DNA from: a virus | Taxonomy: Duplodnaviria; Heunggongvirae; Uroviricota; Caudoviricetes | Strand: one strand, 5' to 3' | DNA: 43,386 nucleotides | Virus record (IMG/VR): IMGVR_UViG_2563366976_000013 | In this document: one piece after another, positions 3,395 through 41,453 of the stretch | How the letters are laid out: each line of letters opens with the position of its first letter | How positions within the stretch are numbered: the first letter of the stretch is position 1 | Notes under the pieces: generated by a model | Told to the model about the DNA's origin: nothing | Database searches by the model: none | The model's input: the letters and a program-made list of their open reading frames with translations, nothing else | Translations under genes and position numbers: made by a program

Positions 3395-6300
3395 AACGTT
3401 CTTCCAGAGACTGAACCCGCTCTTTTATCTTATCCATTTCTCTGCGCTGCCATGCTGCCTCGATATAGAATAAGAGATCAGGTCTGACCCCCCATCTAGA
3501 TCCTGCTGGCGTTATTTCAACGCGCTCAATGATGTCTTCTATTACCATCACTGGATTATCATCCTCATCAACAATGATGCTCCCGTCATTATCAGTCAGC
3601 GGCATTTCCCTTTGGCCAGTAATGACGTCATCATATACTGCGGGATAATCGTCATAGCAAAGAAAGGCATAGCGGCATGTTGTGCTTTCTTCTTCCATGA
3701 GTCCGTGAGAAATAAGAACATCACGAAGTTGCTGCGCGATTACACCATGATGTATCCTCGCCCCTTCTTCCCCCTTTATAGCGACAGCGTTCAGCCATTT
3801 ATAAGCGATATACCTGACGTCACCCCAGGCATCCAGCAATGCTTCGTCAGGAGAGACCGGCTCTGTCTTTAATGTTCCGTCACTGGTAACCACAGGATTG
3901 GAGCCAAGATAAACTATCGAGAACCTGTTTCCCGGACCACCAAGAGCATTTACATTATCAAGATAAGGTTTAACATCTCCGTTCTCAAAAAGATGTTCGA
4001 GTGCGTTATATACCGCGCGACGTGGAGTACTGCTTCCGGAACCATGCAACGTTATCATTGCACCATCTGCTGAAGACGTTGTTTCACCGCCGCTAACGAT
4101 TAATCTCTGAGCGGTAACATCATCAGACGGTACTTTCTTCGCAATAATGGCGTAATTACCCTCAAGTTTGACTTCCGCGCGAACTTGTCCTGATGTACCT
4201 GCATGGACAGTCAGTGACTGGACGGCAACATCATCTGTGAAATCAACGGGTACAGGAACCGTCCTCACGCCTGACGTCGACATAAAAGTAGGAAGCGTTC
4301 TGTTAGGAGTGGCTCCGTAGACAAAATCCCTTGAAACAAATTCTTCCTGTTTAATTTTCACCCTGAAACAATACAAATCAGCCGGGTGACCATCGTGAAC
4401 ATAAGGATATTTTCTGTTGTTATCCCCTATGCTCCATGGGTTTAGAAAGTCTTCCCCACCGAAAATGTAGTACAGCCAGTTGTCTTTGATACAAACTGAA
4501 CCAACACCAACCGCAGAGTTAACTATTCCGCCCTGATAAATCTGATCAGTAACATTAACCCACTCTACATTATCCAGACTCCACTCATTGACGTTAACTC
4601 TGGTCATAAATGTTCTTGGATAATTTCCTGCATAACGGTTATCAGGTTCTCCTCCTTCCCACTCACCAAATGCGCGCTCACTGCCAAAAATAATCAGCTC
4701 ATCGCCAACTTTGGCAAAAGGAAGGTTTGAGTGATGAACATTATTTGGGAAGCGAAGAGAATTCCATGATGTACCTAAATCAGAGCTTCTGTGCAATGAA
4801 CTACCGGGTTGAGTACTTAATGTCCCCCTGGTCGTCAGATACAGAATGCCATCATAATATTTTACACATGGCTCAGATGCATTCGCCTCATATTCTACAG
4901 GTATGCGTCTGCGAACAAAGCTACCAGGAGAACCGAAAGCATCAGAGAAATAGAGTATCCCAAGCTCGCGTGGACCAATATCACCATTATGGTAGCCAAC
5001 AGCAAAACTGTTATCGCTAATCGTCGCAAAACTGTGAATCTCAGTAACAGGAGTGCTTCCGTCAACAAAAGAAGGAATAGTTCCAAGACTGGTTTTTCTC
5101 CATGGTGACGAGTGAAATGATGTGCCAAAACTCCAGTATCTACCCTCGTTATTCTGATCCACATCCTGGGTATTTTGCGTCGTAACTGTAAAGGTATTTT
5201 TATCAATAACAGTAGTCACCGTCATATTCCCGGTAACACCTGTAACACCAGAGTTTGAGAAGTTGACAAAATCACCAGCAAATAATCCGTGATCAGTAAT
5301 GCGAATATAAGCGACTTGCTGATTTGCTGCTTTCGTTATACCACCATAAACGCGAAGGCTGCGACTCATTGGGCGATCCCACAACTCTGCAACCTGCAGT
5401 TTATTTCCTCTCACGGTCCGCGTCTCAATTACAGCAAAAAGGCGATTTCTGACAACCCCCATACTCATGCAGTGATAGTTAACTGTGGGATAGTTTTTAT
5501 GTAAATCTGTAAGCCATTCCGGCGTTGTCCAGGTCTTCCCGTCATCTCCTGAGCGAACCCATGCAACATGGAGGTTATTTACACCATGGCGGTCTCCAGC
5601 CATAAAAGGCGCATAGATGACATTGTCATATACAAACGTTTTATCCTGCGTCCAGGCGTTGTACCACGGTGTATCTGTAATTTTAAATAACTCTCCCTGG
5701 ATAAAATCTTCAGAAGCATAAAAAAGAGGCTGGCCCGGTATTCTCTCAAATAAAAAACGAGCATTTTTAAATCGACTGACATCCGGAAGAGTTGATACTT
5801 TAAAAGTAAGCCCTAATCCGTCAATTTTATAACCTGGAGATGAGGCTTCAAGGCACGCGCTTATTGCAGTGGAATCGTCATTTATACCATCACCAACAGC
5901 TCCAAAATCTTTGGGGCTAATAGCATCACGCATTTTATCCTGGAACGTTCGGTACACAGCCCCAGAACCATACTGAATAAACCAACCAAAACCACCAACA
6001 ACTCCGGAGATTGCAGCATCGACATAATTACGCATTGAGCGATTATTTACAGCGTCCTGCTCAAATGATGGATCTGCAAGGTTAGAAATTTTGTTTTGCT
6101 TTGCATCGTAATATTTTGCAAGCAAAGATGGTTTCATCAATGCACGTCTGAACCACCCAAAACATTGCTGGATCAGCATCGTCAGGTAGTCAAAGGCATC
6201 TTCATGCACTTCGGGGAAAAATTTTCCCTGATTGCGAAGGTCTGTGTCCTGCACTACATCAAGCACACGATCTATCGTAATTCGCCATCCAGTAGCAAGC

Positions 6301-7038: not shown

Positions 7039-7090
7039 AGTAATCAGGCACTGGCAAAATCCAGTGCCGGGATTGGTCTCCCGGATTACT
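7039..7090 (+). ncRNA. Conserved structured leader RNA element upstream of ant1 (three-way junction fold), followed by leader terminator
   Basis: AGTAATC...GATTACT outer stem enclosing hairpins GGCACTGG-caaaat-CCAGTGCC and CCGGGA-ttggtc-TCCCGG; near-identical copy in ant2 leader (11160-11213, minus strand). Confidence 0.45.
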
Positions 7091-7104
7091 ACAGAGGCAC
7101 ATAT

Positions 7105-7124
7105 GCCGCATAAGCGGTTTTTTT
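7105..7124 (+). terminator. Leader terminator/attenuator upstream of ant1
   Basis: Short GC stem GCCGC-ataa-GCGG followed by T7 run; analogous stem plus T7 in ant2 leader. Confidence 0.45.
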
Positions 7125-7278
7125 ATGTGTAAAGCGCACCTATTCTATGGTGGGCTGTGTGGGGGCACCGAAAGGTGCGCCGGGTTCCTTTGTAGCCGGT
7201 AAGACCAACTCTGCACAGTTCACCACCATCTGATTGGTCTCAGCGGTGGTGATTAACCTAACTACAAAGGTGATCGCC

Positions 7279-7971
7279 ATGAATACCAAACCTTCCATCT
7301 TTTCCTTTGAGTCATCCTGCCAGATCCGTATGTTCATGATTGACGGAGAACCTTGGTTTGTCACCAAAGATGTGTGCAATGCTTTGAATATTGATGTTAC
7401 ACAAGCGAGAAAACTTGATAAAAAAGGCTGGAACAAAAAGGGGCTGTATTCAATACAGACCCCTGGTGGAATACAAGAACTATCCATCGTTTCAGAATCA
7501 GGTCTCTACATCCTTATTCTGCGTTGCAAAGAGGCAATGACTGAGGGAACGAGAGCATTCAGATTTCTTGAATGGGTTACAGGCGAAGTACTTCCTCAGA
7601 TCCGCCGCACCGGAAGCTACATTAAAAACTCGCTCCCGCAGGAAGAACGCATAAAGATGGTTGCCGACCAGGTAGCCAACGCCACGGCGTCAGCAGTAAT
7701 GCAGGCGATGAAGATAGAGAACAAAACCTACAGCGCCCCACTGAAGCCCGGCTACCGCAGCCTGATTCATTCGCCGTCTGGTGTTCTCGGCCTGACGGAG
7801 AACTCACTGCTGATGAATCTGCTGAACCAGTTACAGGACGACGGGCACGACGTATCGGGCGCGGCGGCGGAGCTGACCACCATGTTCTGCTACATCGTCG
7901 GTGTGAGCAAATGCCTGCGTGATATCCAGACCCACGCGGAATACATCAACGACAAGGCAGGGTTCTTCTGA
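7279..7971 (+). CDS. Antirepressor paralog 1: Bro-N/KilA-N-type N-terminal domain plus shared Ant C-terminal domain
   Basis: IDGEPWFVTKDVCNAL motif (Bro-N-like); C-terminal 100 aa near-identical to the other two paralogs; start at ATG 7279 with RBS AAAGGTGA (ORF track begins at upstream TTG 7234). Confidence 0.75.
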   Translation: MNTKPSIFSFESSCQIRMFMIDGEPWFVTKDVCNALNIDVTQARKLDKKGWNKKGLYSIQTPGGIQELSIVSESGLYILILRCKEAMTEGTRAFRFLEWVTGEVLPQIRRTGSYIKNSLPQEERIKMVADQVANATASAVMQAMKIENKTYSAPLKPGYRSLIHSPSGVLGLTENSLLMNLLNQLQDDGHDVSGAAAELTTMFCYIVGVSKCLRDIQTHAEYINDKAGFF

Positions 7972-10226: not shown

Positions 10227-10239
10227 TGGCATTCGTTAA
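10078..10239 (+). CDS. Small secreted Cys-containing peptide, copy 2 (variant C-terminus)
   Basis: Same signal peptide and mature region as copy 1; differs only in last 5 residues. Confidence 0.3.
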   Translation: MKKAFAALFVLLSLVASTQAFAGRCQHDSDTAADGSRCGGRSADSRPGGGGIR

Positions 10240-10312
10240 AAACAAGGCCGCGAAAGCGGCCTGTGACATGTCACGATAGTTTCGTTTTGCACATCCCTGT
10301 GCCGCCGTTCTG

Positions 10313-10969
10313 TCAGAAGAACCCTGCTTTGTCGTTGATGTATTCCGCGTGCGTCTGGATATCACGCAGGCATTTGCTCACACCGACGATGTAGCAGAAC
10401 ATGGTGGTCAGCTCCGCCGCCGCGCCCGATACATCGTGCCCGTCTTCCTGCAACTGGTTCAGCAAATTCATCAGCAGTGAGTTCTCCGTCAGGCCGAGAA
10501 CACCAGACGGCGAATGAATCAGGCTACGGTAGCCGGGCTTCAGTGGGGCGCTGTATTCTTTTTTGTCTTCCAGCTTGATCGCCTCCATAATGGCGGGCAT
10601 GAAGCCTGACAAGACCTTCTCCACTTTTGTTTCTTGTTGTCTTAAACGTTTCTCGCATTCAATGAAGTAGCGTCGCACCTGGCGACCTTTTTCGTTACGC
10701 TCGACCATCGCCAGCTCTTTGGCTGTATCAAGGGTGAGGTGGTACTCTTTGCGGTTGTGGCCGCCTCTACCAGATGTTTGCTTTCCCAAATTGGAAAGCA
10801 AAATATAGTCTTGATTTTCAATGAATTCGTATTCTGATATGCGATTTGTAATCCATGCTGCAAACACCTTTTTAACACCTAAAAAAGCGTGCAGATCGCG
10901 GGCATTACAAAGTAGGGCTGTTTCGTTAGATATAGTGCCGTTGAATACGGGGATGAGTTGAGCGTTCAT
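10313..10969 (-). CDS. Antirepressor paralog 2: AntA-type N-terminal domain plus shared Ant C-terminal domain
   Basis: N-terminus [23 protein letters not shown], middle [20 protein letters not shown]; C-terminus near-identical to ant1 and ant3; RBS GGAGACG. Confidence 0.75.
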
Positions 10970-11125
10970 GATGGCGTCTCCACTTAGCGAATTACATCAC
11001 CACCGCTGAGACCAATCAGATGGTGGTGAACTGAACGGAGTTGGTCTTACCGGCCTAAGTGGTACCGGCGTCCTTTCGGACCCCCATTCAGCCCACCATA
11101 ATTCTGGCATGACTGTGCTATACGC

Positions 11126-11285
11126 ATAAAAAAACCACGTCTGGCGTGGTATGCGCCACTTAGTAATCCGGGAGACCAATCCCGGCACTGGATTTTGCCA
11201 GTGCCCGATTACTATGGCACAAGAGGAGTGCGATGTAAATTTACCGAAAAGGTAATGATAAACGCTAAGAAATATTAAAATCAAC
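11126..11285 (-). promoter_or_regulatory. ant2 promoter, operator (11241-11255), structured leader (11160-11213) and leader terminator (11126-11150)
   Basis: Mirror image of ant1 control region with near-identical structured element; palindrome TTACCgaaaaGGTAA. Confidence 0.5.
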
Positions 11286-18827: not shown

Positions 18828-21298
18828 CAGAATCCCCCAACAGTAAGGCGAGGAATAACGGCAAGAACAGACAGCGGCAACGGATCAAGCTGACGGATTT
18901 TTACACGTCCGTTTTTGCCCCAGTTACTGTCCAGTTTCACTTCTACTTTTCCGGTAGCATCATCAACAGGATCATCGTAGAACTCGAATTCACGCTGTGG
19001 ATATTCGTACCATTTACCGCCGGGCGTAGTCGCCCAGATGCCGCGACTGGCATTCACAACCAGAGTAACGGACGGGATCACCTGTTTTTTGTCCAGCAGC
19101 GTTTCCTGTCCGTTAATGTTGATATCCAGTGTTTCGAATTCAGCAGTTATTGGCAGGCCGATGTGCACTACAGCCCCCGGTGATTCCAGCGTGACGGCAC
19201 CTCCGGAAACCACTTTCTGTGGTTCCACGTTCGCATCAGAGAGAATGTTTACGGTCTGGCCTTCAAGATGAGACAGGCCTCCAAATGTCCGGCGCGCCAT
19301 CTGCCAGTTCGTGGTGGCCACATTCCTGAGGGATGGCGGGACGTTCCTGTTAGCACGAACCACTACAGCGGTATTGCTGGTTACAGAAATAATGTCGCAA
19401 CGTAATTCTTTTGACACCTCATCGCCAGTATCAGGATCAGTTCCGGTATAAGGGAACTGTAGTTGCGCGCCGACATCACTACTGGTGAAGTACGCACCAC
19501 CAGAAACACTGATTGTATATTCCGCGCGGTAATCCCATTCGCCAGAACCACCAGTGATGATCATCGTTCTGTCAGACGTATTTCTTCCATCATAGCTAAG
19601 GCCAGAATCAACAAAGAAAGCATCTTCATCGCTGGTAAATAAACGGCTGGACAGTCGCTCGATGTATCTCACTGTTTGCCCGTTAACGGTTCGGTTAACG
19701 ACGAAATACACCGCATCTTCATTGCCTTCGCTGATACTGCATGTGCTTTCATATTTTCCGGTACTGGATTGTGGTGCCCATGCAAAAACCTGCTGATCAC
19801 GCAAATAGGTCATCACCAGTAATTTACCGTCATCACGGATGCAGAAGGCGCTGGAGTAAGGGACTATTGAGAAGCACCAGTCAACAATGCTGTGCTTCTG
19901 AAAAAGATGATTGGCAAGGATAGTAAGGTCGTTCCCCTGATAGCCGTCAACATCGAATGAGTAGGCCAGATCACGGACAACACTGCCTTTCTCCTGGACG
20001 AACAGAGCAATATTCGCCACGGCAATTGGTGGGACATTGCTCGAGCCATTTGATCCCTGAGAGCTGAATGCAAATGATGATGGGGTAAGCACTTTGTTCT
20101 GGTCGCCAGTGATGACGTACTCACCTCCGGAAGTCAGCGCCACCAGCGAACCAACATCAATCAGGTGGCGGATCTCATTAACCTGACGCCCGGCATAGGT
20201 GTAGATAATTCTGTCGTCATCCTGCGTAGGATTGCTTTTGCCAAAATCCTTATAATCCCCGGTACGGCTGGCCCAGATAGTCTGAGGAAACGCAGTCGAT
20301 GCGGCGAAGTAAAGACGTTGTTGATAATAAACAACAGTGCCAGGATAACCATTAACACTGTTCCAGGCATATTTAGCCCATTTATAGCTGGCATTATCCT
20401 CGCCAACTACCTGCGAAGGGATATAGGAAATCACCTCGGCAGTTGCAGTAGTTCCATTTGCAGCAGAGATACGGGCAATGCCAAAACCACTGTGCAGATA
20501 CTCCCACTCAATGCCGGTATCATCATCACCGGATCCGCCCCAGCCATCCCATGATGTGCCTTCTGTATGCGAAGGGCGCAAAGTGCCTGTTTTGCCTACT
20601 GTAACGGCGCGATAGTAGTTACTGTCTGCACGGCGAATATCGCCAATTGACGTACTCTTACTGGTTTCCCATACCGGCACAGAATCCACTGCAGGCTGTT
20701 CCAGATAGAACAATTTGCCTACCTGCTCCGCGCCAAAAATAGAGGCGCTTGCCGTTAACGTAATTGTCCCGGTGCTGGCGCTGGCATAAACCGTCACTGA
20801 CTCGTCAATATTGATATCTTCAAATGGTCCGTTCTTCGTTACCACATCAACCAGTTGCCAGTTGTCATGCGCATAGCGACGCAACTCTTTCGGCGGGTAT
20901 GCCGGATGAACAAGCGTAAGCACGTCGGCGCTTTGCGTGAATTTAATTCGGAACAGATCGGCTTCAGTATATGGCGTGGCAATTTCATAAATAACATTGC
21001 TGCTGTTCAGCACCAACGCACCATCTTTGATAACGCGCATGTACTGGTGTCCGAACTCCAGAGCATAGGTCTGAACCGTCGAGAACTGGAACGGGATCAG
21101 GCGGCATTTCCGATTTGGGTATTTGGCGGCACCGACAAAACGCGTACCTGGTCGATTCTCAACGCCGCCATACTGCCGCACGATAAAGTTATCGCACTTG
21201 CGCAATGCCACCTGGTACTTCGCCATGTCAATACGCCCGTACAACGACGGTCCAATCTCACCACCGGCAAAGCTGGGCTGGATCCAACTGATAGCCAT
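18827..21298 (-). CDS. Tail tubular protein B-like (nozzle)
   Basis: 823 aa, follows 201-aa adaptor-like protein; T7-like order gp11-gp12-gp13-gp14. Confidence 0.5.
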   Translation of the reverse strand: MAISWIQPSFAGGEIGPSLYGRIDMAKYQVALRKCDNFIVRQYGGVENRPGTRFVGAAKYPNRKCRLIPFQFSTVQTYALEFGHQYMRVIKDGALVLNSSNVIYEIATPYTEADLFRIKFTQSADVLTLVHPAYPPKELRRYAHDNWQLVDVVTKNGPFEDINIDESVTVYASASTGTITLTASASIFGAEQVGKLFYLEQPAVDSVPVWETSKSTSIGDIRRADSNYYRAVTVGKTGTLRPSHTEGTSWDGWGGSGDDDTGIEWEYLHSGFGIARISAANGTTATAEVISYIPSQVVGEDNASYKWAKYAWNSVNGYPGTVVYYQQRLYFAASTAFPQTIWASRTGDYKDFGKSNPTQDDDRIIYTYAGRQVNEIRHLIDVGSLVALTSGGEYVITGDQNKVLTPSSFAFSSQGSNGSSNVPPIAVANIALFVQEKGSVVRDLAYSFDVDGYQGNDLTILANHLFQKHSIVDWCFSIVPYSSAFCIRDDGKLLVMTYLRDQQVFAWAPQSSTGKYESTCSISEGNEDAVYFVVNRTVNGQTVRYIERLSSRLFTSDEDAFFVDSGLSYDGRNTSDRTMIITGGSGEWDYRAEYTISVSGGAYFTSSDVGAQLQFPYTGTDPDTGDEVSKELRCDIISVTSNTAVVVRANRNVPPSLRNVATTNWQMARRTFGGLSHLEGQTVNILSDANVEPQKVVSGGAVTLESPGAVVHIGLPITAEFETLDININGQETLLDKKQVIPSVTLVVNASRGIWATTPGGKWYEYPQREFEFYDDPVDDATGKVEVKLDSNWGKNGRVKIRQLDPLPLSVLAVIPRLTVGGF

Positions 21299-27114: not shown

Positions 27115-27191
27115 GTGGCATTAGCTCAGTTGGACAGAGCAACCGCCTTCTAAGCGGTTGGTCGCAGGTTCGAATCCTGCATGCCACGCCA
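27115..27191 (+). tRNA. tRNA-Arg (anticodon UCU, reads AGA)
   Basis: Manual cloverleaf: acceptor GTGGCAT/ATGCCAC, D-arm GCTC/GAGC, anticodon stem ACCGC/GCGGT with loop CTTCTAA, T-arm GCAGG-TTCGAAT-CCTGC, discriminator G, CCA encoded. Confidence 0.85.
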
Positions 27192-27277: not shown

Positions 27278-27353
27278 CAGCAGGACGCCATTGCGATGAC
27301 TTCATGCTGTAAACCCGTACAGCCACGGAAGGCATAACTCATTGCTTCCAGTT

Positions 27354-27379
27354 CGCCCGGTTCGCCGGGCATTTTTTTG
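27354..27379 (+). terminator. Second rho-independent terminator
   Basis: GCCCGG-ttcg-CCGGGC stem then T7. Confidence 0.6.
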
Positions 27380-27394
27380 CCTGATGACCACAAA

Positions 27395-27409
27395 TTACCT
27401 TAAAGGTAT
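27395..27409 (+). promoter_or_regulatory. Operator-like site TTACCttaaaGGTAT overlapping RBS of moron ORF
   Basis: 14/15 match to palindrome family, 5 nt before ATG 27414. Confidence 0.35.
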
Positions 27410-27413
27410 AATC

Positions 27414-28262
27414 ATGAAAAACTTTAAGGTAATTAGTATGTTCGAATCGTTCAAAGAGCTGTTTTTATCTACTGCCAATACTGCCGTGCATCGAGCTAAA
27501 AACCCTGTGCTTGGTGCTTTTGTTATGTCCTGGTGCGCCTTCAACTGGAAATCACTTCTTTATCTGTTTTTTAGCAAATCAAATATAATAGATAAAATTT
27601 CATACATCTCAGATAACAGCACATGGAAAACTGTTATGTTTTATCCATGCTTATCTGTAATTACTATCTGCTGCCTATTACCATGGGTAAACAATATCAT
27701 TAACGTATGGCAAGCAAAACCTCTTGATAATAATGACTCAATCGAAAACCACCGGAAGGCAAGAAAAATACAACGTGAAACACGGCTACAGAGATTGCTG
27801 GCTAAAAAAGACATTACTTACGAAAAAGTAAAAACAGGCGCTGAAAAAAACATTCAAGACATGAAAGAGGAAATAATTCTTTCAAAAGACAGAATGGGAC
27901 AACTCACATCTGAATTGAAAGAGAGGGAGACAGAACTGCGCGCAGCACAAGCTCGTATTTTAGAATTATCTAAGGTTATTGATGAAACAACATCTAAACT
28001 AGAAAATCTAGAAAAAACTCACAAAAATTTAAAAAACGAATATGAGTCCTATAAGAAAAACATTCCTTTGGCAACAAATAATACAATTGCTAATGGGCTT
28101 GTAGGTCTAAAATCATTACAAGACTTTAATGAGTCCGTAAAGAAACTTGGCGTTACTGGAATTAACAATCCAGAAATCAGTACATTATTGAATAATCCTC
28201 TAGTAAATATAAATGGTGATTTAAATTCCACCTATCAAAGAAAATCAAAAACACAAAAGTAA
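27414..28262 (+). CDS. AT-rich moron: membrane-anchored coiled-coil protein (candidate abortive-infection/exclusion factor)
   Basis: 283 aa from ATG 27414; two hydrophobic helices then long Lys/Glu-rich coiled coil; low GC vs flanks; opposite strand to late operon, inserted between terL and portal. Confidence 0.55.
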   Translation: MKNFKVISMFESFKELFLSTANTAVHRAKNPVLGAFVMSWCAFNWKSLLYLFFSKSNIIDKISYISDNSTWKTVMFYPCLSVITICCLLPWVNNIINVWQAKPLDNNDSIENHRKARKIQRETRLQRLLAKKDITYEKVKTGAEKNIQDMKEEIILSKDRMGQLTSELKERETELRAAQARILELSKVIDETTSKLENLEKTHKNLKNEYESYKKNIPLATNNTIANGLVGLKSLQDFNESVKKLGVTGINNPEISTLLNNPLVNINGDLNSTYQRKSKTQK

Positions 28263-28265
28263 AAA

Positions 28266-29735
28266 TCATTCAAATGGGTCATAGTCTGTTATAGCCCTGC
28301 CCTGCTGCTGCCGTGGGTCATTAGTTTTCTTGGCTACCGGGAACGCAAACGTCAGCAGTAGCGCATCGCCTTTACCAGGAGAACGCCCAAGCCGCTCCTT
28401 GATATCTTCCTTCGGTTCGATAACGATTTTACCGTCCACTCGAACTTTGTACTCTGCCGCCGACAGGTCGTCCGCTGTTTCCTGGTCATCAAGCATGCCG
28501 CCCAGCCTCAGCCATGTCTTGCATGAGTTGAACATCTCCCCACGCTTGTTGAGCATCTGCGGGTCAGTAGACGCGCCACCAAACGGAACAAGTTGCCATG
28601 TACGACCCCAGCCGTCACCGATTGACTTCAGACCAGTTCCGTAACCGAAGTCGATGAACACTGCGTCAGCCTGGTACTGGTCTTCAAAGTCAGCGATACG
28701 CTTCGCCATTATCAGATCGTCAGTGGTCTTGTTGCCAGTCCACAGCACCTTACTGTGTAGCCCCTGCCGCAGGTATATCACAGCGTCATCAACGCCGGAG
28801 TATGCCGGGTCAACGCCGATTATCACCGGAGCATGTGCAACCTGCGCAGCGGTTACCACCCGTTTCATTGCCTCGTCAGTAAGACCGGTAGGGATAAACT
28901 GCAATTCAGATGCATCAGGGAATATGCCACGCACACGGATTTTAACGAAGTCGCTGTCTTCCCCGTAGTCATCAACCCATTTCTGCAACTGCTGTTTGTT
29001 GGTACCTTCCACCGTCCGACTGTCAATCTGCGCAGTTTTCCAGCGGTGTTTATACTTGCGGAAACATTCACGGAAACGTCCGGTATTACGCGTCGGGTTT
29101 CCGAACGCCACCCAGATAATCTCAGTGTCTTCGTCCGTAAGCGCACCCTCAGCAACTTCCCACACCAGATCCGCAATGTTCGACGCTTCATCGAATACCA
29201 CGATGATGCGTTTGCGCTCGTTGTGTAGTCCGGCGAATGCCTCAGTGTTGTGCTCAGACCAGGGGATTGCGTCAGCTCGCCACCGCTTGTCGTGCCCAGG
29301 ATCATTGCTGTACATCGCAGTAGCGGTACAGGTAAACCAGTCTTTCGTGATAGCAAGGTTCGACCACTTGATAATTTCCGGCCAGGTCTTCGTTCGTAGC
29401 TGGTTGTCGGTGTTGGCGGTCACCACGACCTTACAATCCTCGCAAGTGGACATGCCCCAGTTGATCAGCATTGAGATGAATGCGGATTTACCAATACCGT
29501 GACCAGAAGCGCGTGCCAGCATAAGCGGCTGATAGCGCGTCTCTGGATTCTGCAGGTGATCACGTATCTCTCGGAACGCATCGGCCTGCCACTGACGTGG
29601 ACCGGTGGCATGTGCCAGTTCAGTACCCTCTTCCCCCCACGGGAACGCATAGAGGGCATAGCCAAGCGGATCGTGAGTGAACCCTGCAATATCCTCGATC
29701 AACTGCTCTTCAGGAGATAACGCTGTATCTGTCAC
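28266..29735 (-). CDS. terL: Terminase large subunit
   Basis: Walker A-like GHGIGKS, nuclease-type acidic motifs in C-half; GTG start overlapping terS stop. Confidence 0.85.
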   Translation of the reverse strand: MTDTALSPEEQLIEDIAGFTHDPLGYALYAFPWGEEGTELAHATGPRQWQADAFREIRDHLQNPETRYQPLMLARASGHGIGKSAFISMLINWGMSTCEDCKVVVTANTDNQLRTKTWPEIIKWSNLAITKDWFTCTATAMYSNDPGHDKRWRADAIPWSEHNTEAFAGLHNERKRIIVVFDEASNIADLVWEVAEGALTDEDTEIIWVAFGNPTRNTGRFRECFRKYKHRWKTAQIDSRTVEGTNKQQLQKWVDDYGEDSDFVKIRVRGIFPDASELQFIPTGLTDEAMKRVVTAAQVAHAPVIIGVDPAYSGVDDAVIYLRQGLHSKVLWTGNKTTDDLIMAKRIADFEDQYQADAVFIDFGYGTGLKSIGDGWGRTWQLVPFGGASTDPQMLNKRGEMFNSCKTWLRLGGMLDDQETADDLSAAEYKVRVDGKIVIEPKEDIKERLGRSPGKGDALLLTFAFPVAKKTNDPRQQQGRAITDYDPFE

Positions 29736-30328
29736 TGATTACCATCCTGACGTTCTTTGAGTCGCTTCCTGGCTGCTGCTATGCGATCAGCAATTGTCAC
29801 ATTCACATTAACATCCAGACGTTCTTTGAACGCGTTGACATCAACATGCTTACCAATCAGCTCAAGGTTCTTCACCTTGTCAGGCCATTTAATTTTTTTG
29901 AGGATTGTCTCTATCGAATCCTCGTTCATGTTCATGATGGTCGATGACAGATCAAAGCCACTAAGCGTAGTGCGCCAGATTTTCGGCCACTCACGGATTG
30001 GTTTAAGGCTCCCATCGTCGTTGAGGATGTCGATCACGTCCATCTGGTCGATCTCCACCAGGCGCATGAGAACGTAATCAGCACTGACACGCATTCGTTT
30101 GTTGCGCTCCTCCATCAACTCGGCAATCCGTTTTTGAATGCGTTCATCGCGCATCATGACACTGGCTTTAACTGCCGCTGTATTTGGGGAGAATCCTGCG
30201 TTAATCGCTGCCTGAGTCTGGTTTTCAGGCGTTTTGATGTATGACTGGCAATAAGCCTCCTGCATTGCTGTTAGTGGCTTAAATTGCGTTGATTTGCGTT
30301 TATAGGTTTTAGGTTCAGCAGGCATCAT
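29732..30328 (-). CDS. terS: Terminase small subunit
   Basis: Position immediately upstream of terL with overlap; start placed at MMPAEPK with RBS GGTGG (ORF track extends to 30406). Confidence 0.6.
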   Translation of the reverse strand: MMPAEPKTYKRKSTQFKPLTAMQEAYCQSYIKTPENQTQAAINAGFSPNTAAVKASVMMRDERIQKRIAELMEERNKRMRVSADYVLMRLVEIDQMDVIDILNDDGSLKPIREWPKIWRTTLSGFDLSSTIMNMNEDSIETILKKIKWPDKVKNLELIGKHVDVNAFKERLDVNVNVTIADRIAAARKRLKERQDGNQ

Positions 30329-30446
30329 AACCACCGTGGTAATAGTTACCGTTTTGGTAATAGTACCATGCAAAATAAAGCCGCCATAGTTGGCGGCAGT
30401 ATTCAAAACCCGTCAAATTCATCATGCATAATCTACTCGTGACATG

Positions 30447-30785
30447 TCACACTATTAATTTCGTTTCATGCCAGCCTTTGGTCACCCAGCATTGCGAGTC
30501 ACCATTACACGGGCATGAATTAACTGGAACTCTCTCGCCGCACTTACCGCAACGTTTTCTGCTGATCGATTTTATACGCCCGCGCACCCGGGCATCATCC
30601 TGGCGGATCAGCAGCGCGATGTACTCGGCCATTTCATAGGGATCTCGACCAGGGCGCCGGGCGGCGCAGTTCCGCTCCAGCATTTCAATTTCCTGAGCAT
30701 CAAGCACAATCTCCAGCTTACGCACACCAGATGCAGCTTGTCTGGCTCTCTGAGCGGCTTTGCGCTCTGCTGCTGATTTAGCCAT
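30447..30785 (-). CDS. Zinc-finger protein, candidate late-gene regulator
   Basis: Cys cluster CGKCGERVPVNSCPC in C-terminus; basic N-terminus; last early gene before terminase. Confidence 0.35.
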   Translation of the reverse strand: MAKSAAERKAAQRARQAASGVRKLEIVLDAQEIEMLERNCAARRPGRDPYEMAEYIALLIRQDDARVRGRIKSISRKRCGKCGERVPVNSCPCNGDSQCWVTKGWHETKLIV

Positions 30786-31928: not shown

Positions 31929-32657
31929 TCACTCTCCTTTGATGCGAATGCCAGCGACGCGTGGCACATTAACTTCCACGATGCGCACAGTTGGTTTGTA
32001 CATCTCAATCGCTGTCAGCCAGTCAGCGCCAGTCATGCGCTTTTCTGCATCGCCATTAGTCCACTTAACCGGTACACCAATAGCCTTCATCGCGATTTCT
32101 ATTTCCCCGGCAATGGCGCTTTTTCCGCAACCAGTAAAACCAGAAACAACGACAAGAACTTCGCCTTTGGCTGGTTTTATTTCCCGCGCTTCCAGTTCTG
32201 CTATGCGCTTCTCTGATGCTTCAAGTAACGCCTGCTTATCGCGTAGCGCTTCTTCCAGTTCAGCAACATGGCACTCACTATCAATAAGGTTGTTCTCTGC
32301 GGCTTCCAGCTCAACACGCAGCTTCCCTACCGTTAGCGCAATATCCTCGTTCTCCTGATCGCGGCTTTTGATGTATTGCAGGTTTCTTTCCCGTTCATCC
32401 AGCAGTGCCAGCACGGTAGCTGGATTGGCTGCGGCGATGAATTCAGCATTGGCCTGCTGCTCCATTTGGAAATCTTCATAGAAACGGCTTTCTGGATGCG
32501 CTCCTTCAATTCTGCAAATGGGAATATATCCAGCAACTTCACGATGAATTAGTGCATCATCACCATCAAATCGGCCATCTCCATATTCGAGCGACCACTC
32601 GCCACACGTTGCTTTCTCTGCCGCCTCACGCAGTGCCTGATAGTCAATCTTGCTCAC
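31929..32657 (-). CDS. Ea22-like early protein (coiled coil)
   Basis: Coiled-coil central region with LEEALRDKQALLEASEKRIAELEA; typical lambdoid early-region family. Confidence 0.5.
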   Translation of the reverse strand: MSKIDYQALREAAEKATCGEWSLEYGDGRFDGDDALIHREVAGYIPICRIEGAHPESRFYEDFQMEQQANAEFIAAANPATVLALLDERERNLQYIKSRDQENEDIALTVGKLRVELEAAENNLIDSECHVAELEEALRDKQALLEASEKRIAELEAREIKPAKGEVLVVVSGFTGCGKSAIAGEIEIAMKAIGVPVKWTNGDAEKRMTGADWLTAIEMYKPTVRIVEVNVPRVAGIRIKGE

Positions 32658-33227: not shown

Positions 33228-33836
33228 TCATGCCGATCTATTTTTCATCAGTGATTCATAAAACTTTTGCCACTTATGCCGACCGAAATTAGCCTTCGAG
33301 TTACAGCTCGAACAAAGGCAAATAAGGTTCTCCTGACGACAGTCTTGCTTGTCGTAATTGATGTGATGAGTTGTTAGCCTTTTGTCTGTTCCATCACAAC
33401 CTGGGTTCTGACAAGTAAAACCATCTCGCTCAATAACCCTCTTGCTCGTTTCTCGGAAATCCCACGGATACGGCAATCTCGATAATCCACCAGACCAGTT
33501 TGGATTTCCTTCCCCCTTCATCAGAGAAGAACGCATTATGTTGGAACACTGTTTCGAGCAGCATTTATGACGCTTCTCATGACTCAAGAAAACGGAGAAC
33601 GAAGATCCGCATACGCAGCATATTTTTAATACTCGCTTTAGTTCCCGATTTACCGTCTTGCCTCGCTGTGAAATTCCTACACACTGAAGTGAGCAGAACC
33701 TTGAAGATGAGTTGGCTCGCTTAACCTGATATTGCCTGCCACATACGGAACAAACCTTTTCGATTTTCCCACCCTTCCAATTCGGGTTTTTATCACCGGA
33801 TACAATCAATCCCGCAGCATTGGGCTTCTCGCTCAT
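33228..33836 (-). CDS. HNH endonuclease with N-terminal zinc-ribbon repeats
   Basis: HNH core TTHHINYDKQDCRQENLICLCSSCN; two NPNWKGG/NPNWSGG repeats with Cys pairs. Confidence 0.7.
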   Translation of the reverse strand: MSEKPNAAGLIVSGDKNPNWKGGKIEKVCSVCGRQYQVKRANSSSRFCSLQCVGISQRGKTVNRELKRVLKICCVCGSSFSVFLSHEKRHKCCSKQCSNIMRSSLMKGEGNPNWSGGLSRLPYPWDFRETSKRVIERDGFTCQNPGCDGTDKRLTTHHINYDKQDCRQENLICLCSSCNSKANFGRHKWQKFYESLMKNRSA

Positions 33837-35909: not shown

Positions 35910-36173
35910 TCAGCTTGAGTGTTGTGGGGAGGAATTAATCATGATCTGCTTAATCTCTGCCCTGATGCGACGGTTTGATTCCATGGTGCACTCAACACAG
36001 TGTCCGTTGTAAACCCAGCGTTCACTGTCATGTCCATGCTTACATGGTTTTCCGGTGTAGTAGCGTTTAAGTCCGCGCTTTGCGGCATCAATACGTGTAA
36101 TGATTTCCATGGTAAGCCCTGTTATTAGTATTGGGATTACGGTCATTTTGTGCTGACACAAAAAAAAGATCAA
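35910..36173 (-). CDS. Small zinc-binding protein in cII-equivalent position (probable start 36110)
   Basis: CKHGH...CVEC motif; between Cro-like and O-like genes. Confidence 0.35.
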   Translation of the reverse strand: MIFFLCQHKMTVIPILITGLTMEIITRIDAAKRGLKRYYTGKPCKHGHDSERWVYNGHCVECTMESNRRIRAEIKQIMINSSPQHSS

Positions 36174-41129: not shown

Positions 41130-41453
41130 AATCACGCCTGACGAATCGCGATTATCTCGCTATTGGTATTGCAGAGATTGCTGGACTCAGTGGCGCATGA
41201 TTTGACAATGCCGCCAGAGCTATCGCATACTGACCGCACTAGAACTTCAAAGCGGTCACCCGCACCCGATAGCTTTGCGGCTTTTTTATGCCTGCAATTT
41301 GGCATAGTCACATCCGTACAAAGGTCGGGTGGAGAGGCGTAATACAATACCCAAAAGGGGAATATGCCCGGAGCGTCTTTGAAGGCTCTAGTTGACACCC
41401 GATCACCAGCTACTAACTGGTGATTGCTAACTAAAACTTCAAAGGAGGTCATC

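Follow-up and report, generated by a model that had tools for sequence, protein, structure and literature searches.

One of the closest described systems to the gene considered here is that of phage lambda (Q-qut-pR'-tR'), in which a small late-switch gene is likewise placed last before the late genes; its product, Q, also bears a Cys4 zinc site and reportedly prefers to act in cis. P2 Ogr, 186 B and P4 Delta are, like the protein described below, small basic Cys4 phage proteins proposed for late-gene control. Regulators with a ribbon-helix-helix (RHH) fold, such as P22 Arc and Mnt, CopG and omega of pSM19035, likewise combine a small protein with a short palindromic target, and factors of the TraR/DksA type (PF01258) share with our protein a long helix followed by a cysteine motif. 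True homologues are N15 gp46, the phiKO2 homologue, epsilon15 gp49 and phiV10 p55 (PHROG 536), the functions of which are only putative.

The window, by which we mean the whole stretch of 43,386 nucleotides that was analysed, is a complete prophage of the phiV10/epsilon15 type (Uetakevirus) with its late genes on the minus strand. The features needed for what follows are these:

30447..30785, minus strand: CDS of 112 aa, with its ATG at 30785 and its TGA stop at 30449-30447
30439..30450, no strand: perfect palindrome GTGACATGTCAC, overlapping the TGA stop; proposed cognate site
30372..30397, minus strand: intrinsic-terminator-like hairpin GCCGCCAACTATGGCGGC (30397-30380) plus T-run TTTATTTT
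30360..30368, minus strand: extended -10-like element TGGTACTAT, after the terminator T-run and about 25 nt upstream of the terS Shine-Dalgarno/ATG
30337..30367, minus strand: direct repeats GGTACTATTACCA and GGTAACTATTACCA in the terS leader
29732..30328, minus strand: terS, the first late gene (Pfam Terminase_2, 1.4e-29)
10263..10274, no strand: second exact copy of GTGACATGTCAC, 38 nt past the stop of ant (10313-10969, minus strand)
10238..10262, minus strand: intrinsic terminator AGGCCGCTTTCGCGGCCT plus TGTTTTT, hairpin 10262-10245, abutting the second palindrome

The last early gene and its protein

An earlier note on this DNA had described the gene at 30447-30785 as the last of the early operon before the terminase and its product as basic, and both descriptions were borne out. 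The start of the ORF overlaps the 3' end of an ASCH-like gene, the gene closes the minus-strand early operon, and terS lies about 120 nt downstream, followed by terL; the true start of terS is the ATG at 30328 or 30325, the TTG at 30406 not being used as a start. The protein has a pI of 9.64, with 23 K+R against 14 D+E. By comparison with its relatives the ORF is a real gene and no chance ORF, since it matches PHROG 536 ('transcriptional regulator') over its full length (E 1.1e-54, residues 1-111 against profile positions 2-114 of 115), has 776 close homologues and is found, with its locus, in 639 of 5426 complete E. coli genomes (about 12%). The phiV10 counterpart, p55, is 95% identical and is annotated as similar to epsilon15 gp49.

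The window protein matches no Pfam family, and databases list its homologues as 'hypothetical protein' or 'gp46', or under the automatic labels 'transcriptional regulator' and 'RepB-like'. A profile search against 1.84 billion cluster representatives matched only 210 clusters, nearly all with proteins of 100-135 aa. The homologues are carried by N15 (gene 46), phiKO2, 186-like Yersinia myoviruses, Pantoea phage AH07, Vibrio K-series siphoviruses, other marine siphoviruses and one Mu-like phage. In Uetakeviruses (before terS) and in three groups of marine siphoviruses (before holin/lysis genes) the early genes end with the homologue, and the late genes follow it. The homologue of the Mu-like phage stands close to the early operon's end and immediately precedes gemA, that of AH07 is the final early gene in the leftward direction, ahead of xis and int, and that of the Yersinia 186-like phage comes just after gene A, the place at which 186 carries gene B.

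Three further features of the prophage were noted in the early and leftward regions. An HNH endonuclease gene (202 aa, several CxxC pairs) is located in the early operon at 33228-33836 (minus strand), between a DUF1064/resolvase-like gene and DUF550-type genes; the corresponding early region of phiV10 has no annotated HNH gene. Directly after the first early terminator (36239-36220), at about 35910-36110 (minus strand), a gene encodes a small zinc-motif protein of 66 aa (phrog_1081, no assigned function) with the motif Y-x-G-K-P-C-x-H-G-H...C-x-x-C and weak similarity to the N-terminus of endonuclease VII. A match to sRNA-Xcc1 (Rfam, 62.9 bits against a gathering score of 53) is found at 41323-41412 (plus strand), in the leftward region near the integrase end.

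The cysteines of the window protein are at positions 40, 79, 82, 91, 93 and 99, forming the cluster C-x2-C-x8-C-x-C-x5-C. The cluster that the earlier note had reported is thus present, but the spacing given there (x9) was off by one, and C93, the second cysteine of its C-x-C pair, is not conserved in alignments of 71-81 family members. Across these diverse relatives C79 and C82 never vary, C99 hardly does, and a cysteine is aligned at or near 91; because these cysteines are conserved and C93 is not, the zinc ligands are likely C79, C82, C91 and C99. Some marine homologues have no such module at all:

L096-L100, marine viral contigs, gene at about 6001-6260: 86-aa homologues without the Cys module

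These short homologues retain the C-terminal L-x-L and the palindrome at the stop codon, and since the zinc module is absent from them it is not the core of the family.

The remote homology and structure prediction that had been suggested as a check gave a confident model but no significant fold match to a DNA-binding protein. AlphaFold, run on an alignment of 81 sequences (mean pLDDT 89.2), predicts four helices (5-18, 30-42, 52-74 and 100-108), the last of them preceded by a Cys knuckle (75-99) that is not helical; the N-terminal helix is basic, with nearly invariant R8 and R13, and is followed by an extended segment (19-29) and then by two helices. Foldseek searches of this model against PDB and BFVD returned no significant match except a fragment of the same protein in BFVD, and a model from a shallow alignment (pLDDT 69.6) returned none either. 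The best PDB match, 5ytp (TTHA0139), has a probability of 0.9 but an E value of about 1; no mention of TTHA0139 was found in the searchable literature, and a CopG query does not retrieve 5ytp. A sequence search of the PDB with the single protein gave no match.

The extended segment and the two helices following it could, in the predicted model, fit an RHH fold, and the palindrome, being made up of two inverted 7-bp units, would suit such a protein. The strand and helix A of CopG can be aligned in register with residues 22-44 (RKLEIVLDAQEIEMLE), although with an hhalign probability of only 3%, and RHH matches were sub-threshold (E 0.01-0.07), RHH_5, RepB-RCR_reg and RHH_1 appearing in 1-2 of 71 members and YbfE at 0.054; Arc gave no hhalign match. 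Unlike known RHH regulators, the protein has an extra basic N-terminal helix and a C-terminal putative zinc module, and its proposed sites are found at gene 3' ends by terminators whereas theirs are over promoters.

A second borderline similarity is that to YbiI and TraR, matched by the family profile in the PDB at E 0.017-0.03. The hhalign probability against a TraR alignment is 69.8% over 55 columns (helix 52-74 and the Cys knuckle), and the pattern C-x2-C-G-x2-[ILV]-P...F-x-G-x3-C is common to TraR/YbiI and the family in the same register. Neither the window protein nor other members match PF01258 in Pfam, TraR is absent from the Foldseek matches, and in place of the two CxxC pairs of DksA/TraR only the first CxxC is conserved here, the other conserved cysteines being single ones at about 91 and at 99.

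The stop-codon palindrome and its terminators

Counted from the end of the stop codon, the sequence GTGAC-N2-GTCAC stands at -3 in 45 of the 51 distinct homologue variants, representing six phage types. Its position is kept down to about 30% protein identity (marine siphoviruses) and in homologues without the zinc module, and the homologues bearing it include N15 gp46 and those of the Yersinia 186-like phage, AH07, the Mu-like phage and marine siphoviruses. What follows it differs: terS, inserted ORFs or a LexA-box/umuD-like moron in some cases, and elsewhere xis-int (AH07), gene 47 (N15) or a LexA-controlled gene (Yersinia phage). In one group of homologues the palindrome is located 6 nt past a TAA stop, and in the Mu-like phage it is translated within a C-terminal extension; since it persists in both of these situations, coding constraint does not explain it.

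Exact copies of the palindrome are few in each genome, numbering two in the window, three each in phiV10 (including a copy split across the record ends), N15 and Vibrio K308, two in AH07 and one in the Yersinia phage, yet these 1-3 copies compare with 0.02-0.06 (about 0.04) in shuffled genomes. No mention of the motif, or of the gene-palindrome module, was found in the searchable literature, and no known RNA family in Rfam covers the palindrome or its terminator.

Several known kinds of site were considered. A binding site for CI or Cro was rejected because the immunity regions, and with them the immunity specificities, differ among these phages and the annotated CB operators of N15 are located elsewhere than its palindromes. 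CRP sites have a consensus spacing of N6, and the spacing here, GTGA-N4-TCAC, rules them out. A cos site was likewise rejected, N15 and the P2-type Yersinia phage having their cos sites elsewhere; the epsilon15 genome is terminally redundant. The PHROG 536 gene is the only constant neighbour of the palindrome, and from this we infer that GTGAC-N2-GTCAC is the binding site of the gene's own protein.

Insertions near the palindrome were also recorded. In Uetakevirus relatives (L005, L060, L067, L068, L080 and L084) the DNA between the palindrome and the packaging genes carries an insertion, about 20-70 nt past the palindrome, of a LexA-box promoter (TACTGT-N8-ACAGTA) together with a umuD-like gene, and in the Yersinia phage LexA boxes are found about 70-110 nt after its palindrome.

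The terminator at 30372-30397 begins about 40 nt after the stop-codon palindrome, between the gene and terS. A terminator before terS is conserved in E. coli-type and Salmonella-type relatives, and in phiV10 a putative rho-independent terminator is annotated at the record end, at the p55 stop codon. Both palindromes of the window adjoin, on the upstream side, the two best minus-strand terminator candidates of the late region, the hairpins of which have 7 pairs, 6 of them G-C, followed by a T-run. The palindrome-terminator unit at 10238-10274 is found again in phiV10 (19493-19522), where each of the three copies comes after the end of a gene and before a terminator. Counted over 88 distinct palindrome contexts, which come mostly from related Uetakeviruses and are not independent, a terminator-like hairpin starts within 50 nt downstream in 52, as against 95 of 2400 random positions.

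Palindrome and terminator are not a constant distance apart, the interval being 0-40 nt, about 225 nt or 160-200 nt; the marine siphoviruses have their terminator 159-204 nt past the palindrome and immediately in front of the holin/lysis and packaging genes. Other copies are placed within coding regions (N15 repA, the Q-like gene of AH07 and a marine endolysin gene), and at several of the L096-L100 loci a second palindrome is found about 1320 nt downstream, inside the endolysin gene. The window does not have the copy that phiV10 and many relatives carry after terL, so that not every copy of the palindrome can be essential.

A 306-aa ORF (phrog_4780, no assigned function) at 27342-28262 (plus strand) converges on terL in place of the phiV10 p03 moron, and with this exchange the post-terL palindrome is absent. 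A tRNA-Arg gene (anticodon TCT) is present in the moron region between terL and the portal gene at 27115-27191 (plus strand), and O157 typing phage 9 has an annotated tRNA-Arg in the corresponding position. Around the second palindrome, two pairs of isrK and C4 antisense RNA were found at 7048-7230 (plus strand) and 11019-11204 (minus strand), well above the Rfam gathering score and each followed by an Ant gene (7234-7971, plus strand, and 10313-10969, minus strand); two P1-type antisense-controlled antirepressor modules thus converge, with the second palindrome between their 3' ends. Finally, repeated TTTGTGTTTA / TAAACACA-like motifs occur in the AT-rich DNA that separates the palindrome from the pre-holin terminator (L095 6360-6480, L105 8370-8470 and relatives), and these could be sites for another factor.

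Coexistence with Q and Ogr

From its position and general character the earlier note had put the protein forward as a candidate late-gene activator of the Q/Ogr type, while claiming no recognisable similarity to lambda Q. The latter statement holds, the hhalign probability being 0.3%. What stands of the former is a small basic Cys4 protein at the early/late junction; what does not stand is the kinship, as there is no homology to Q or Ogr and members of the family coexist with both. Comparison with lambda Q finds no similarity of sequence or fold (no Pfam and no Foldseek match), and the Ogr/B homologue of the Yersinia phage gives an hhalign probability of 1.1%. Ogr/Delta proteins (PF04606) have the spacing C-x2-C-x22-C-x4-C as against C-x2-C-x8-C-x7-C here, the window protein has no Pfam match to them, and the Ogr target, TGT-N12-ACA at about -55 of late promoters, differs from the GTGAC-N2-GTCAC proposed here. 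On these comparisons the protein is excluded from the Q and Ogr families.

Among the early genes of the window none resembling Q or Ogr was found. In N15, however, the homologue gp46, about 1.9 kb from the annotated late promoter, coexists with the Q-like gene 40, and in AH07 it coexists with the Q-like gene 52, which adjoins the holin gene. The Yersinia phage vB_YenM_31.17 (L091) has an Ogr/186-B homologue at 32431-32643 (plus strand), unannotated and overlapping gp44, an annotated reverse-strand 'hypothetical protein', together with late promoters containing TGT-N12-ACA dyads; its product is presumably 56-63% identical to Ogr and 186 B. The non-orthologous replacement of Ogr/B by the PHROG 536 gene in this phage, which had been considered, was rejected once the homologue was found. 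Because members of the family occur beside a Q or Q-like protein in N15 and AH07 and beside Ogr in the Yersinia phage, phages in which the homologue does not adjoin the late genes, late-gene activation is probably not what the family has conserved as its function, and these three phages contradict such a role for the family as a whole.

A likeness to the lambda system remains in the layout, and in the layout only: an element directly downstream of its own gene is followed by a terminator before the late genes. The site itself is different: it is a symmetric palindrome of which each genome has 1-3 copies, and some of these abut terminators with no promoter between. Q loads onto a sigma-dependent, promoter-proximal paused complex and then antiterminates processively; no promoter could be located here with confidence. 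No late-regulation study of phages of the epsilon15/phiV10 type was found in the searchable literature, and nothing relevant on the N15 context or on RHH/zinc late regulators.

Possible gating of terminators and other readings

Taken together, the sequence and the predicted structure suggest that the protein is probably a small, dimeric, sequence-specific DNA-binding protein. The reading that we prefer, tentatively and at somewhat less than even chances, is that it binds GTGACATGTCAC, acts at terminators and gates early-to-late read-through in this phage. The protein would be the last made from the early operon and would occupy two sites, the palindrome some 40 nt before the terminator that parts the early operon from terS and the second palindrome, ahead of the terminator after ant. 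Once bound it would alter the behaviour of RNA polymerase at those terminators, most likely in the direction of read-through into the late genes, and the result would be a locally loaded, cis-favoured functional analogue of Q. In favour of this reading are the persistence of the palindrome at the stop codon, the excess of its copies, the terminators beside them (in the marine groups directly before holin/lysis genes), the lack of a Q-like or Ogr-like gene among the early genes and the predicted basic helix with its possible RHH core. Counting against it are the coexistence with Q or Ogr in other phages, the varying distance to the terminator, the copies inside coding regions, the possible terS promoter past the terminator, the copy missing after terL, the kinship of the contexts behind the terminator count and the want of any significant fold match to a DNA-binding protein.

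The same gene-palindrome-terminator layout would be expected if the protein acted in the opposite sense, as a terminator helper or insulator, an alternative that we regard as rather unlikely. The palindrome-bound protein would here strengthen termination or form a roadblock at the ends of transcription units, keeping early transcription from the late genes and late and moron units apart, and the late promoter would be located past the terminator. The extended -10-like element TGGTACTAT is well placed for this, as it could serve as a terS promoter without antitermination. It is conserved in relatives, which have TACTAT, TATTAT or TACAAT at its position, each preceded by TGn (TGnTA(C/T)(T/A)AT), and although the consensus promoter scan did not flag it, it is a possible terS promoter. 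The direct repeats GGTACTATTACCA and GGTAACTATTACCA are conserved between E. coli-type and Salmonella-type relatives, unlike the spacer upstream of the terminator, and may be a regulatory site or one related to pac. An insulator would also fit those phages that already have Q or Ogr, as well as the copy in phiV10 that closes the reverse-oriented moron p03 and precedes its terminator. The hairpins, however, already look strong, late genes past reverse-oriented morons would still need a route of expression, and binding upstream of a terminator is the wrong place for a classical roadblock.

An activator in the style of Ogr or Mor, recruiting RNA polymerase from the palindrome to a weak late promoter before terS, appears improbable. 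The position at the early/late junction in four lineages and the basic protein with its putative zinc module are in its favour, and promoter-like sequences are found near some copies: GTGACA-18-CATGAT overlaps the stop-codon palindrome, one N15 copy is 24 nt upstream of TTGACG-17-TAGAGT (in the antirepressor region, with an annotated terminator 115 nt further on, element and terminator lying at 28413-28561), and Vibrio K308 and L105 each have a copy 20-30 nt upstream of terS. Against this, no promoter element was found at a fixed distance from the palindrome in the window or at the E. coli-type, Salmonella-type and marine loci, the spacer between palindrome and terminator being 39 nt in E. coli-type and 22 nt in Salmonella-type relatives; the second palindrome of the window has no promoter-like sequence after it, and the marine loci have no consensus promoter between palindrome and terminator. 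The low hhalign probabilities for Ogr and Q, and the coexistence with one or the other elsewhere, also count against it.

We give equally little credence to a function at the level of DNA, in which the palindrome would be an accessory site for module boundaries, recombination, packaging or replication and the protein an architectural binder. Copies are indeed found at junctions where relatives swap morons, some are close to terS, one N15 copy is within repA, and genes for HNH endonucleases are frequent neighbours. N15 and the P2-type Yersinia phage nevertheless have cos sites of their own elsewhere, a pure boundary sequence would not stay tied to one gene family down to 30% identity, and the protein has no nuclease or recombinase domain. 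Least probable of all is a TraR/DksA-like factor that binds RNA polymerase directly, without a DNA site of its own and with something else bound to the palindrome, since, for all the matching register and the borderline profile matches, the fourth cysteine position of TraR is not conserved and the fourth ligand differs, where TraR has its acidic tip the corresponding loop is basic (R43, R44, R47), and the zinc module is dispensable in the 86-aa homologues, which still keep the palindrome.

If terminator gating is extended from this phage to its relatives, PHROG 536 would be an unrecognised class of cis-favoured regulator, unrelated to Q, N, Ogr or Mor, that gates terminators in at least six lineages of temperate phages, loading at the stop codon of its own gene and timing read-through into late and moron-interrupted operons; as a whole, this wider proposition is possible but on balance doubtful. 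What is new here is the linkage between palindrome and gene, the family itself having been previously unstudied. A gene with a conserved putative site on its own stop codon offers a simple, testable hypothesis that extends to other terminator loci, in a group of phages, those of the epsilon15/phiV10 type, that serve as O157 reporter and typing phages. Should gating prove false, there would still be an unexplained cis/trans pair spread across podo-, sipho-, myo-, Mu-like and telomere phages. Should it prove true, the protein would represent a new solution to the job done by Q and would explain how late transcription crosses terminator-flanked morons.
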